A stretch of 53,217 nt of DNA, counting the filler, from Perkinsus olseni (lineage: Eukaryota): NCBI GenBank assembly GCA_013115125.1. It is 2 parts of 2 records of this genome, joined end to end, with 100 filler letters (N's around TTAATTAATTAA, not from the genome) between each part and the next. Parts side by side here need not be neighbours in the genome. Positions count along the whole stretch, not along the records: positions 1 to 26,580 come from JABANN010000477.1; 1 more part is not named here. One strand, given 5' to 3'. This document shows positions 21,064 through 26,161 of this stretch, in pieces. The stretch's first letter is position 1, and every line of letters begins with the position of its first letter. The position numbers were made by a program, and so were the translations under genes. Below the pieces are notes generated by a model. That model saw only the letters and a list, made by a program, of their open reading frames with translations. It had not been told where the DNA came from and searched no databases.

Positions 21064-23309
21064 ATGAACAATTCCCTGCTAGCTAACCGACTCAGCCCCT
21101 CGGCGGCGAGAGCGGCTTCTTACGCCCTGCGTGACCGAATGAGGAGATGCCGAGACATAAGGCAGTTGCACAGGATAGTGAAGGGAGCGATGATGGTGCT
21201 GCGGAGGTGGGGACTGCTAAGGGGAATGGGATTGTATCGTAGGTCACCGGTGAGGAATCTTTGGTTGACGCGTGCTCAAGATGGAGCTCGAGGAATATCC
21301 TTGATTACGTCGCGAGGTTGAGCTGGCTCGTTGCGGAAAACAAGATACCTTTTAGCGGAGAGGATGAACGGATAGCAAGTACTCCTAGAATCTCACGGCC
21401 GTTCGGAATGGTGTGGTATTCAGGCGCGTTAATATCGTCAGTTCCCCTGGACCTGCTTTCTCCTTCCCAATTGACTTCCTATCTCTCTTCAACAGCCCGC
21501 CTTCACTCAACAAACGTCGGGCTGTCTATAAAGCTGCCCCCAGTAGCCTTGGTGTTGTCAGCAGCAGTGAGAATCAGTTCGGCGAGGGTCGTCCCGGAGC
21601 TCCTTGCGGCCGCGGTCAAGTGCGGGATGGTGATCAGTGATGAGGATAGTGCGGGGGTCCTAGGCCATATTAACGATCTGGTCCGCCGAGAGAATCTTGA
21701 CGCACTGGAGTCAGCCCGGACGCTTGCTACGTTGCTGTGGTGTACGGCTCGGGTTTGCGGAGGGGAGGTGGTTTCTGGCAGCCCGAAAGTCGCTGATATT
21801 CTGGGATGGTCTACGGAACTTCTCGAGGCCTGGGCGTATCTTTCGACCACTTCGAGCTCTCGCATGAAGGTCGAGGATGCGTCTATGATACTATGGTCCT
21901 ATGCTACAGTGTGTGGGGAGGGAGAGGGTCCCTGGGGGGAGCGGGTGATAAGGGCGATCGATTCTCTCCTCGAGAATGCACCAGCCCGTTTTGAAGTGGC
22001 TGATGCGTGCCTCATCATGTGGGCAGTCTCGAAGCTGTCTCGTGATGCTGCGGTGGTGGGGCGTATCTTAGCTTCATGCGAGGACATTATAAAAAGGTTC
22101 CTTGATCAAGGGTCGTATCTTTCACCTGCGTGTATGACCATGGTGACCTCAGCCGCCGCCAGACTTCAACGGAAGCCAATAGTCTGGCCACCTCCAGTCC
22201 AGGTCATGCTGAAGATGTCTTCGACGCAGCTGGCGAGTATCTTCCGCACAGCAGAGAAAATAGGCTGGCACGAGCAATTTCAAGCTGCGGTGGTGGAGGT
22301 CGCCATCCGCTATTCCTCGTACGTGGACTTGATATCATCGCTGAGTCGGGTGCCGCCCGCCCGGGATGCTCTCACCATCGTACTGAAGGGTCTTCCTGAA
22401 AGAATTCAGAAAGTCTCGGGTGAGGATTTTGTGAGGTTATTGACCGCCCTAGAATCTAGCGGTCATGCCCGATCGCAAATCTCTAGCCTGCTTCGGACGG
22501 CCGAAGCCCTCCAGCCGGGCCAGTTGAGTATAAATAGCATCATTAACGCTCTCGATGTGGCAGCAAGATTGGGAGGCTCCCTTCCCCTGCCTCACCTGCT
22601 GGAGTGGGTCTACTCCGAGTCAGCCCAGCTCGCAACGCTGCCGTTATCGCAGCGTATTGTGATCGTAAGAGCAGTGGGCGCCATGGGCCCTTCCAAAGGT
22701 CTTATGGCTGTCGACGATTTCACCAGCGATCCCTCGGACGAACCGGTTTTGATATCAGCGTTGTGCGTAGGGTTTGGCTACCTCGCTCGACCCCCGCCAG
22801 ACCTGATCGAAGTCGCTCATCGGGCAGCTTTGGTGGCCCCCCGGCTGAGTGGAGTTGGTCTTGCTATGATGACCAAGGTCTTCGCCAAGCACCGTGTAGT
22901 TATCCCTGGCCTCCTCGCCGCCCTACTCGAAGCGGCCCCGGTCGCTGAGGGGTACGACGACCCCGCTAGGTGCCTGATGGTCGTCTATCTCCAGCGCCTT
23001 GATTGCCTTCAACAGAATAAAGTGGGGGAGTCCCTTCTGAAGGGCATAGAGGGCTTCCACTCCGTCGGGTTAGAGGAGCTCGTTCTGTTGGTCTGTGCTG
23101 TTGACGGCAACTTCGGTGATGATCTCGAGGTGGTCCAAAGGGCGAGGGCAGCGATGGAGAGTGCCGTAACGGAGGTCTGCGGGTGCATCCGCAGTGGGGA
23201 CTGCCGTACCCTGGCTTCAAAGCATGGGGTGAAGCGCTTGGACGGGCAGGTCATTGGGAAAGTTTTGACGCAGCTGGTGCGGTTGGTCGAACCCTATTCT
23301 GGTGGCTGA
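21064..23309 (+). CDS. Helical-repeat (HPR/RAP-type repeat) protein, paralog 1, no deaminase motif
   Basis: Long ORF 21261-23309 plus a first exon at 21064. Repeated helix-pair motifs (LATLLWCTAR, ASMILWSYAT, ACLIMWAVSKL, LAMMTKVFAKH) align colinearly with the next gene. A short extra 3' exon (~23316-23495) is possible. Confidence 0.75.
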
Positions 23310-23553
23310 GGGTAGGGCAGTACCCTCCTGGAGATTGACGGGGCTGAGGGCCTTCCGACCGATCGAATGGAGCCTGTCGTGTTTCTGCTTGTTTCTGGTC
23401 AGCAGTGTCGAGTTGGTGTTTATCAGCGGACGGCCTCCCCAGCAGGGCCCTTCGACGAGGGTATTAAATTCATGTGCTTCGCGACCTCTGGTTAGTGTCA
23501 TTAACTCACTTTCATCGGCCAAGTTTGACTGTCGTTCTACTGACTACCACACC

Positions 23554-26161
23554 ATGCCCTACTCGTCTCTATCATCGCTCATATCAAGACGTAGCCCCTA
23601 CAAAGCCAAGCAAGCGTCCTATGCTCTCAGTGACAGAATCAAGAAGGCCACGACGGTTGACCAGCTGGTTCGGATACTCCGGACCCTCAGGGTGAGTCTC
23701 GACCTCCCTGCCTTGCTGTCACAGGTCTTCGTCGCAGGCAAGCGCCATCGAGAGTGACAGCCTCATGGCCGATCTCATGACAACTCAGAATCGACTGGAC
23801 TGGTTGACTAGGGCTGCTTTCTTTGGTGGCTGGAGATACGGCTATGATAGGATACCGGAGGAAATTCGGAGTATCTTGAAATCTGTTTTTAACCGTCTTC
23901 AACCTCGCTGATATCAGGTCAGATCTTCAAGCCTCTGGAGCCGGACGACTTGGCCCCAGTCCAACTACGGCAGTACCTAGCGGCTGTCGTTAAGCTCGTT
24001 GTCTCCTCTTCCGTTCCGCTGCCCTCGGCGACGGCCGTCCACGCAGCCGCGGCGGAGGGCAGCCTGACTGAGGTCGCTCAGCTGTTGAAAGCTTGTGTGA
24101 GGGCGGGCGTTGACGCTGGACTGATACTACAAGAAGCTTATAGGCGTATCTTGGAGCTGAGCATGCTTGGTACAGAGTAGGTCAACCACACCGTGCCTAG
24201 CGAAGAATTCTGTGATGGTCAGGTCCTTGCGTTCCCTCGGTTCAACAGCCTGGGCGGCGGCGCAGATGGAAGTACACCACCCAAAGCATCCCACCCCTGC
24301 GCTGGTCTTGCCACACATCGCCGGGCTCCTCACCTGCAGGCTCTCCGACCCTGCCCTCAAGCTCAGCCTCCCGGTGGCCTCTGAGATCCTCTGGTCCTTT
24401 GCCACTTCTCCTTCCGTCCCCCCTTCCCTCGGTCGGCAAGTCGCCCAGGCCGCGCAGGCCTCGATTCTGAAAGATTTCTCGGGTGACGGCAGCCCTCGGG
24501 AGCTTGCTACGATTATGTGGTCCCTCGCCAGACTTGATGCTGTGGGGGAGCTGTTTTCCCTGTGTGAGTCTACTTTATCGGAGATGCCCGTTGAGAGCTT
24601 CTCGCCTGCAGTCATCACTATGGCGTGTTCGGCTTTGGGAAGAGCCCGGCGTGTCCCTCCCCCTCCTGCCCTTTGGCCGCCTCACTGTGCTGACTTGACC
24701 GCCACCCAGCTGGCGACGGTCGTCAGAGCATCTGCTGTATTGGGCTGGTCAGATTCCATCCAAACTGCGGTGAGGACTGCGTTGTCCGACCTCCCGCTTT
24801 ACGAGGCTCTTCCACTGCTCCTGGCCCTTAGCGCCGCACCAGCTGCTCGGGATCTGCTTGTCGTCGCCCTCGATGAGTCCTTGCCGGACAGTCTGGACGC
24901 GTGGCCGCCGTCAGCTGCCGTTGATCTCGTGACTATCCTCAGTCGGTCCCCAAACCATCGGGTGAGGATGTTCGAGGCGTGCGAGCTGGTCAGACTCAGT
25001 AAGCTTTCCGCTCACGAGTGTTGTTCTCTTCTCGCTGCTCTGGCGAGCTCAGGCGTCTACGATGGTCGGGTGGTGGAGGGGGTGCTGAGACAGGTCGAGG
25101 GTCGCCTCCATAAGGACCTGTCCTCATCACACAAAGCGGCTCTGATGAAGGCCTACGCGACGCTACTGCCATCCGCTATCGGTGACATATGGGAGCGCAT
25201 CGCCAGCTCAAGTGACTTAGCCGATTCAAGGCTGGTGGCTACGGCCTGCTGGGCCCTTGGGAATCGGTCCCTGCCAACAGCACATCACCTGAGGACCCTT
25301 TCGCCGTGCGCGTGCCGGGCTATGAAGGACCTTGATGGTGTTGAAGTTGCCAACGTTGCGAGAGCATTCGCCAAGCATAGAGTGAGAGATAAGGGGTTGA
25401 TGGAAGCCATCGTGGAGGCCGTGCGAGGATGCCCTCCTCGGATGGACGATCGGGCGCGTTGCTCGATATTGTGGTCGTTGCGAAGACTCGGTGGGCTCAC
25501 GGAAGATACGCTGACCTTTTTGTTGAACACCATGGGCGACCTAAGATACCTAGCTGCGCAGGAACTGGTTGCCCTGGCGAATGCCACGCATTCGATGTCC
25601 GCGGTGTGTCCAAAATACGATGATATACGAACAAGGATGGAGGAGCTTCTTGATGAATTAGCAATAGCTGTGAAATCGGGGGACATATCCAAGGTTGAAG
25701 CTTGCAAGATATGCAATGTCGGCCCGGCGTTCGTTGGCGAGCTGTTGCGAAGGTTGAAGATTTCCTATGAGATAACCGCCTTGCATGAGACCCCTGAGCA
25801 GCACATCGGAGTCGCTGACACTCAAGTGACTTTGACTTTCTCTGATCAATTCAGCCAAACCACGGTGTTGTCCTTTCCGAGCGGCTCTGATTGCAGCAGA
25901 CCCACCGCGTACGAGGACGAAGTTGACTCGCCGTCGAAGGGTTTCGGTGGTCACGACAGATCTCATCACGGCGAGTTGAAGGCCCTCCGGCATTTGGTTG
26001 GCGTCATTGGTGGTGAGAACTTCTCACAGCTTACTGGTGATGTTGTTATAGACATCAATAGCCAACATCCATGCGTTTCATGTATCGCTGGTATATGGCG
26101 GACGAGCAATGTGCTCTGTCCGAATGTGACGATTACAGTCAAGTTTCCGCTAATTGACTAG
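23554..26161 (+). CDS. Helical-repeat (~37 aa, HPR-like) protein fused to a C-terminal zinc-dependent deaminase domain
   Basis: Short 5' exons from ATG 23554 lead into ORF 24167-26161. The repeats have 37-aa spacing. The C-terminus has HDRSHHGELKAL (HxE at 25967-25975) and GDVVIDINSQHPCVSC (PCxxC at 26069-26083). Confidence 0.85.

Follow-up and report, generated by a model that had tools for sequence, protein, structure and literature searches.

A stretch of 53,217 nucleotides from the shellfish parasite Perkinsus olseni (assembly GCA_013115125.1; in the following called the window, positions 1 to 26,580 of which come from the record JABANN010000477.1) contains two neighbouring genes on the plus strand, arranged head to tail, whose open reading frames (ORFs) are the two longest of the window. 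Gene 1 (21064..23309) codes for a repeat protein of 717 amino acids, and gene 2 (23554..26161) for a paralog of 822 amino acids in which a solenoid resembling heptatricopeptide repeats (HPR) is followed by a domain with the motifs of a zinc deaminase. The explanation considered probable, with some reserve, is that gene 2 encodes a deaminase of the bacterial toxin type which is guided by its solenoid, and that gene 1 is an old duplicate without the deaminase which serves as a stand-alone RNA-binding solenoid.

The exon structure of both genes was obtained from contigs of four public sequencing runs (X1, X2, X15, and X16) placed on positions 20900-26400. The kind of these runs was either guessed or not recorded, and that they derive from RNA was concluded solely from the contigs that are free of introns. 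As contigs lacking the introns must come from RNA, transcription and splicing are established for both genes. The contigs show five GT..AG joints of 45-47 nucleotides, and every joint appears in three runs out of four. In gene 1 they remove intron 1 (21196..21242, 47 nucleotides) and intron 2 (21379..21423, 45 nucleotides), both seen in X1, X15, and X2, and leave the coding segments 21064-21195, 21243-21378, and 21424-23309. The three introns of gene 2 (23692-23737, 23871-23917, and 24177-24222; 46, 47, and 46 nucleotides), with joints in X1, X15, X2, and X16, separate the coding segments 23554-23691, 23738-23870, 23918-24176, and 24223-26161. Once the joints are applied the frames of both genes are open over their full lengths. 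The start codons at 21064 and 23554 and the gene 2 stop at 26161, which had been proposed in a first-pass annotation of the DNA, proved to be correct.

The stop codon of gene 1 (TGA, 23307-23309) is crossed without splicing by contigs of three runs (X15 21424-23388, X2 22916-23330, and X16 22735-23353). It had been suggested that gene 1 either ends where the deaminase region begins in gene 2 or has one short extra exon; the first part was confirmed, and no additional 3' exon was found in the contigs passing the stop. The spacer between the genes (23310..23553, plus strand) comprises the 3' untranslated region of gene 1, covered by a contig up to 23388, a spliced-leader acceptor AG at 23522-23523, and a 5' untranslated region of 30 nucleotides belonging to gene 2. 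Contigs of gene 2 begin at 23520, and in X1 and X15 they are preceded by a loose end, ...ATCTTGGCT, which together with the genomic CAAG forms the 3' end of the spliced leader PmaSL1. The available part of Zhang et al. 2011 (PMC3101222) gives this Perkinsus spliced leader as ACCGTAGCCATCTTGGCTCAAG. The two genes yield separate mature mRNAs, that of gene 2 with a spliced leader of its own. Read-through or frameshifting into a fused product was also considered: the spacer is wholly open in the gene 2 frame (23311-23553, 81 codons), and the gene 1 frame has a TGA and a TAG within three codons, followed by about 60 open codons. It was rejected, since none of the contigs connects the two genes and the gene 2 mRNA begins with a separate spliced leader.

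These transcripts also correct the public annotation. P0001 ('hypothetical protein FOL46_006983, partial [Perkinsus olseni]') matches the long ORF of gene 2 at 100% identity, while two further public P. olseni proteins, P0004 (1430 amino acids) and P0164 (1494 amino acids), merge both genes by means of predicted mini-introns around the stops of gene 1. Given two separate mRNAs, as attested by the RNA-type contigs and by the spliced leader, these fusions are annotation artefacts. A word-based protein look-up with the gene 1 ORF returned no protein of 375-1194 amino acids, as the public annotation fuses gene 1 with gene 2 in P0004; the P. chesapeaki ortholog came up only when all library proteins were scored with a profile. 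At the 5' side, a spliced gene 1 contig of run X1 (2070 nucleotides, depth 673) extends upstream past 20900 by more than 1.1 kb, and the gene 1 contigs of X15, X16, and X2 start at 21037-21041, exactly at an AG. The spliced leader may be added here, with a precursor that extends upstream or a transcript coming from a neighbour.

Genes 1 and 2 are colinear tandem paralogs with a similarity far beyond chance. Comparison of the long ORFs by BLASTP yielded 74.3 bits and an E value of 5e-18 with 125 of 462 positions identical, a tblastn search with residues 61-664 of P0001 found gene 1 at 21285-23201 of the window (E 2.7e-23), and MAFFT aligned the spliced proteins over 665 columns, of which 196 (29.5%) were identical. 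Introns 1 and 2 of gene 1 share alignment columns 46 and 96 with the first two introns of gene 2; the pair arose by tandem duplication at the DNA level and not as a retrocopy. A tandem pair with and without a deaminase is what the first-pass annotation had described. Among the eight pairs of matching blocks it had listed, seven fall into the same MAFFT columns and only RLSWL/RLDWL is offset, RLDWL being paired with ILDYV. The C-terminal solenoid blocks of gene 1 (22881..23276, plus strand), FAKHRV (22881-22898), DDPARC (22956-22973), IRSGD (23187-23201), and VLTQL (23262-23276), are common to gene 2 right up to the start of its deaminase, and the stop of gene 1 follows 10 codons past the last of them. 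The same segment is the one best kept in the ortholog from P. chesapeaki, with 0.52-0.57 identity per window of 60 amino acids. The pattern [HCD]xE...CxxC occurs exactly once in gene 2 (residues 759-797) and neither in gene 1 nor in any plus-strand frame of 21001-23556, so that the absence of HxE/PCxxC motifs noted before ATG 23554 holds. Also, tblastn within the window at E ≤ 10 revealed no second deaminase-like stretch and no relic of one in the spacer.

As to the class of the repeats, Pfam returned no family for either long ORF at E ≤ 1, including FAST_1, FAST_2, RAP, and PPR, and the gene 2 orthologs P0002 and P0003 had no FAST_1, FAST_2, or RAP match either. A profile of both genes and two gene 2 orthologs, scored against 1.84 billion representatives, had 322 matches at E ≤ 1e-3, with 20 of them reaching E ≤ 1e-10 and three E ≤ 1e-30. 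All 40 of the next-best matches scanned (P0006-P0045) carry FAST_1 and/or RAP, FAST_1 being present in 38 and RAP in 18 of them; P0005, which was also scanned, has no Pfam family. The repeat period of these relatives is 37-38 amino acids. A hidden Markov model (HMM) of the repeat unit, built from 57 units of P0006, P0007, P0012, and P0040, recognised four units in gene 2 (E 4.8e-9) and two in gene 1 (E 5e-4), compared with 0.3 for the best of 40 shuffles. Another profile (A4), made from Perkinsus sequences only and without the fused P0004, whose inclusion had caused misalignment, matched the trypanosome editing-complex protein RESC6 with an E of 8e-6. The AlphaFold2 model of the main exon of gene 1 is all-alpha with 34 helices, at a mean local confidence (pLDDT) of 75.3 and a predicted template modelling score (pTM) of 0.61; in Foldseek six of its seven matches at E ≤ 1e-3 were RESC chains, led by RESC6, RESC4, RESC9, and RESC8 with E values from 2e-5 to 2e-4. 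Judged by profiles and model, the solenoids are degenerate heptatricopeptide/FASTK-like repeats of the organellar RNA-binding type and not pentatricopeptide repeats (PPR). The term repeat protein used in the first-pass annotation was right in kind, and its framing by analogy to plant PPR factors had to be given up: with no PPR or DYW family matching (E ≤ 1, or E ≤ 10 for the deaminase domain), PPR identity of the repeats was rejected in favour of the FAST_1/RAP and RESC6 relationship. Among the relatives, P0039 has FAST_1 fused to a pseudouridine synthase domain and P0038 an RRM fused to FAST_1.

The deaminase domain of gene 2 (25757..26158, plus strand) covers residues 689-822, that is 134 amino acids. 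HGE (25967-25975, residues 759-761) is followed after 31 residues by PCVSC (26069-26083, residues 793-797), and the chain ends 25 amino acids later with KFPLID and thus without a DYW tripeptide. Both motifs and the position of the stop are kept in P0003 from P. chesapeaki and in P0002 from the Logan collection, HGE and PCVSC being invariant across the three Perkinsus orthologs, and no other part of gene 2 is conserved as well as this domain (in the last window of 60 amino acids the identity to P. chesapeaki is 0.78, versus 0.54 overall). Pfam gave no match to it at E ≤ 10, including Toxin-deaminase (PF14424) and DYW_deaminase. An AlphaFold2 model based on an alignment of eight rows (pLDDT 75.7, pTM 0.76) places the two motifs at the N-termini of the consecutive helices 99-111 and 134-147, flanked by five strands; strand 62-68 is separated from helix 99-111 by 30 residues, and the strand behind the PCxxC helix is the last one of the chain. 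The Foldseek list for this model was led by DddA (6u08_E, E 8e-3, probability 0.98), APOBEC3H, DddB, and PPR-DYW proteins. With VIA-align the DYW domain of OTP86 (7o4f_A, root mean square deviation 2.7 over 98 residues) and DddB (9k3e_B) came out on top, both with Z 7.5; all of the 50 matches listed were nucleic-acid deaminases, and 116 chains reached Z ≥ 5. In a language-model atlas the nearest cluster (score 0.92) consists to 78% of PF14424 members and is followed by MafB19 and SCP1201 clusters. The Z values are middling by the standard of the tool itself, but motifs, fold list, and atlas agree, within the accuracy of the model, on a nucleic-acid deaminase of the bacterial-toxin type near BURPS668_1122/SCP1.201. 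The BURPS668_1122 clade is presumably the one which Pfam names Toxin-deaminase (PF14424).

Members of this clade have been described in the genus before. Iyer et al. 2011 (PMC3239186), in the available part of the text, place Perkinsus proteins with predicted transit peptides in the BURPS668_1122 toxin-deaminase clade, for which their Table 1 gives RxxDxExK in helix 2 and CxxCxS in helix 3. Gene 2 has RSHHGELK at the first site, with the R, E, and K present and a histidine in place of the aspartate, and at the second site all three Perkinsus orthologs have CVSCIA, the serine being missing.

The age of the pair can be read from P. chesapeaki. P0005 ('FOL47_008899, partial [Perkinsus chesapeaki]') shares 39% of its residues with gene 1 over 512 amino acids, compared with only 30% for the gene 2 ortholog of its own species. 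It ends 16 residues past the MLTQL block with no deaminase seen, and its tail is unlike the KI[SP]YE strand found behind this block in every gene 2 ortholog, so the P. chesapeaki ortholog of gene 1 probably lacks the deaminase as well, and not every ortholog appears to carry one. In a maximum likelihood tree the gene 1 clade, formed by the gene of the window, the N-terminal half of P0004, and P0005, has a support of 100/100; as this clade includes P. chesapeaki, the duplication predates the split of P. olseni and P. chesapeaki.

Relatives of a dinoflagellate type hint at the way in which the two genes came to differ. P0006, P0009, and P0077 are FAST_1 repeat proteins which end in a colinear domain, RDxHPE...SQYPC[VI]SC...CP, and thereby keep HxE/PCxSC; the 90% cluster of P0077 (P0153-P0163) includes a protein named Cladocopium goreaui. 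Pfam does not recognise these C-termini. The HMM of the Perkinsus deaminase scored them at 10-14 bits, compared with about 5 bits for the next of the 165 stored sequences, and the atlas places the P0006 domain in PF14424 clusters too. The link, weak as it is, favours an old fusion of solenoid and deaminase, and because FAST_1 proteins of the dinoflagellate type carry a homologous C-terminal deaminase, the domain was probably lost from gene 1. Another protein of the HPR type, P0136 (Logan, 817 amino acids), keeps PCVSC and the next strand in its C-terminus and has FGE in place of HGE, which suggests an inactive form of this domain.

Taken together a sequence of events can be proposed. Gene 2 is a nuclear gene with a spliced-leader-capped mRNA, and its N-terminus, basic and poor in acidic residues, would serve as a mitochondrial presequence for import (the first 25 amino acids of the two proteins hold four basic and zero to one acidic residues, none of them acidic in gene 2). 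Inside the organelle the solenoid of gene 2 would bind particular RNAs and position the 134 amino acid zinc deaminase, with HxE and PCxxC intact, on a nearby base, in a manner convergent with PPR-DYW proteins. Gene 1, a tandem duplicate older than the species split, still has the solenoid in full and introns 1 and 2 but no deaminase, which it probably lost. It evolves about twice as fast as gene 2, is still expressed and open, and would most likely serve as an ordinary stand-alone RNA-binding solenoid.

A number of points weigh against this proposal. The argument for targeting is confined to the composition of the N-terminus, neither protein is matched by a Pfam family, and PDB sequences provided no match to the deaminase domain. 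The structural evidence is middling, as Foldseek gave no match to the domain model at E ≤ 1e-3 and the best Z of 7.5 stays below 8, and the alignments used for structure prediction had just eight rows for the deaminase and five rows for the solenoid. By score, the Perkinsus and dinoflagellate domains are linked weakly, with significance only within the 165 stored sequences, P0005 is flagged 'partial' with its end not given, and the tree allows gene 1 to be a sister of the gene 2 rows as well as to branch from within them. Two P. marinus members of the toxin clade, whether orthologs of gene 2 or not, are called 'apparently inactive' in the available part of Iyer et al. 2011 (PMC3239186). Finally, Gornik et al. 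2022 (PMC9550989) report, as far as their available text goes, no differences between mitochondrial DNA and transcripts in Perkinsus, that is, no RNA editing, and the presence of nuclear tRNA(UCA) genes (anticodon TCA). Without mitochondrial editing and with such tRNA genes in the nucleus, an obvious substrate is missing. Editing of tRNA-Trp from CCA to UCA, by which UGA is read as tryptophan in the mitochondria as in trypanosomatids, was dropped as the leading idea for gene 2, because nuclear genes with a TCA anticodon remove the need for anticodon editing. Possible substrates are rRNA fragments, DNA, and imported tRNAs at positions outside the anticodon; the domain may also have a role without catalysis.

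Some of these points have a bearing on a different explanation, which is rated as unlikely, namely that the gene 2 domain does not edit RNA at all and is either a non-catalytic RNA-binding module, as proposed by Iyer et al. for P. marinus, or a deaminase of DNA or free nucleotides. The missing editing in mitochondrial transcripts and the 'apparently inactive' clade members would fit to it, as would the double-stranded-DNA deaminases DddA and DddB among the top Foldseek matches, the apparent truncation of the modelled domain after strand 4, and the loss of the zinc-binding histidine in P0136. However, HGE/PCVSC are invariant in the three Perkinsus orthologs and kept in the relatives of the dinoflagellate type, the deaminase is the segment of gene 2 with the highest conservation, and its fusion partner is a solenoid of the kind that binds RNA. 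Truncation is also common within the toxin clade, whose members are listed as toxins all the same in the accessible portion of Iyer et al. 2011 (Table 1, PMC3239186). An RNA-directed and solenoid-guided deaminase is the reading retained for gene 2.

A more far-reaching version of this reading, which is improbable, would see the fusions of HPR solenoids and deaminases as the myzozoan counterpart of PPR-DYW proteins, acting as site-specific enzymes for the C-to-U editing of organellar RNA. P0006, P0009, and P0077 would then be part of the long-sought editing machinery of dinoflagellates, gene 2 would edit an RNA that has so far escaped examination, for instance imported tRNAs or rRNA fragments, and gene 1 would be its partner in trans.

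The partnership in trans may also be considered by itself, and is to be rated as similarly improbable. By analogy to E/E+ PPR proteins, which cooperate with partners of the DYW1/DYW2 type, gene 1 would be a specificity factor without a catalytic domain which recruits gene 2 or its deaminase; the first-pass annotation had put forward such a resemblance. The solenoid of gene 1 has been kept right to the junction, including the IRSGD...VLTQL blocks, its C-terminal third is the best-conserved part of the protein, the gene, although older than the species split, has stayed open and expressed, and it adjoins gene 2. On the other hand, the P. chesapeaki orthologs of the two genes are located on different contigs (21,398 and 75,997 nucleotides), so that the tandem linkage may not be conserved, and mRNA editing is not reported for Perkinsus mitochondria in what is available of Gornik et al. 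2022. In addition, 145 of the 150 best library matches of the solenoid profile have no deaminase motif and function without one. Because of these 145 relatives a stand-alone role is the simpler reading of gene 1, which, judging from its sequence, most likely acts as a stand-alone RNA-binding solenoid.

Very unlikely is that gene 1 is a decaying duplicate without function which is still transcribed by chance: it does evolve about twice as fast as gene 2 (terminal branches of 0.099 versus 0.047 and 0.59 versus 0.36; identity of 84% versus 92% to another P. olseni haplotype and of 39% versus 53% between species), has a long stem branch of 1.71, and has lost the very domain for which conservation in gene 2 is highest, but its frame of 717 codons is intact, both introns are precisely spliced in three runs, the P. 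chesapeaki ortholog is open over at least 514 codons at 39% identity, and conservation between the two is uneven (0.22-0.57 identity per window), a pattern not expected of neutral sequence. The argument against recent decay which had originally been drawn from the long ORF is in this way strengthened by transcription, intron-free contigs having been found, and by the ortholog.

When compared with known systems, gene 2 resembles the PPR-DYW proteins of plants and Naegleria in having a helical-repeat solenoid followed by a C-terminal zinc deaminase with HxE and PCxxC, and the DYW domain of OTP86 (7o4f_A) ties as the best structural match of its domain. The proximity of a deaminase-less gene 1 to a deaminase-bearing gene 2 likewise recalls the E/E+ and DYW types of PPR proteins. 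It differs from them in the HPR/FASTK-like repeats, in the lack of a PPR or DYW match in Pfam, in ending with PLID and showing no sign of a second zinc site, and in a deaminase that looks nearer to the bacterial toxin clades. Another parallel are the HPR, FASTK, and RAP proteins, such as the HPR/RAP proteins of apicomplexans, human FASTKD proteins, and RESC6 and RESC8, with which the pair shares profile similarity, an all-alpha solenoid, and the period of 37-38 amino acids seen in the relatives. Unlike these, the repeats are too degenerate for a FAST_1 match and a RAP domain is missing, the deaminase of gene 2 sitting where many relatives have RAP.

The gene 2 domain is connected with the toxins of the BURPS668_1122, SCP1.201, and DddA type by the PF14424 cluster of the atlas and by DddA as the top Foldseek match; its RSHHGELK departs from RxxDxExK in having an H for the D. 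In the model, the 30 residues between strand and helix and the chain end after the post-PCxxC strand also agree with what Iyer et al. 2011 (Table 1) give for the BURPS668_1122 clade. In contrast to BURPS668_1122 and SCP1.201 members it has HxE and not DxE, CVSCIA and not CxxCxS, and it is not matched by any Pfam HMM. Further differences to toxin deaminases are that gene 2 is eukaryotic, nuclear, and intron-bearing, and that a solenoid takes the place of toxin delivery modules. From the P. marinus proteins that Iyer et al. call inactive it is set apart by its sequence, in which all zinc-binding and catalytic residues are kept.

While the occurrence of this deaminase clade in Perkinsus was already in print (Iyer et al. 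2011, PMC3239186, in its available part), no paper was found on a fusion of an HPR/FASTK-like solenoid to a deaminase, on a conserved deaminase-less tandem paralog, or on the relatives of the dinoflagellate type, in a searched literature that omits most subscription journals. The effectors of dinoflagellate organellar editing 'remain poorly understood' in the words of the available part of Klinger 2018, and the candidates cited so far in the accessible portions of Liew 2017 and of a 2026 review are PPR-like and ADAR-like proteins. By their sequences, proteins of the P0006/P0009/P0077 type are possible dinoflagellate organellar editing enzymes, and would provide a concrete candidate family for organellar editing in alveolates. 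The combination of solenoid and deaminase is the logic of plant organellar editing, and it seems to have arisen once more from other parts: in the lineage to which the dinoflagellates belong, these are an HPR/FASTK-like solenoid and a deaminase of the toxin type. The Perkinsus pair offers a tractable entry, as one deaminase-bearing gene comes with a natural deaminase-less paralog for comparison, and as the organism is reported to be without mitochondrial mRNA editing, the real substrate of gene 2 becomes a testable question.

Several other features were observed in the window. A MAK16/Ribosomal_L28e-like exon on the minus strand (14413-15078, E 7.5e-28) and an ORF resembling MFS transporters, also on the minus strand (32166-33716, E 1.3e-6, below the Pfam cutoff), have no evident link to the gene pair. 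Behind gene 2 lie two runs of 44 N at 26581-26624 and 26637-26680, and after them, at 26706-27281, an exon matching Pfam Asp (E 8e-14), which codes for the C-terminal half of an aspartyl protease of the eukaryotic kind. A tandem repeat with a unit of 27 nucleotides, 8.7 copies, and 88% matches, for which a period of 72 nucleotides can alternatively be set, is found at 4039-4282. Within positions 6000-18000 the GC skew is strongly negative over 6-16 kb, at about -0.2 to -0.26, and then changes to +0.22 at 16-18 kb.

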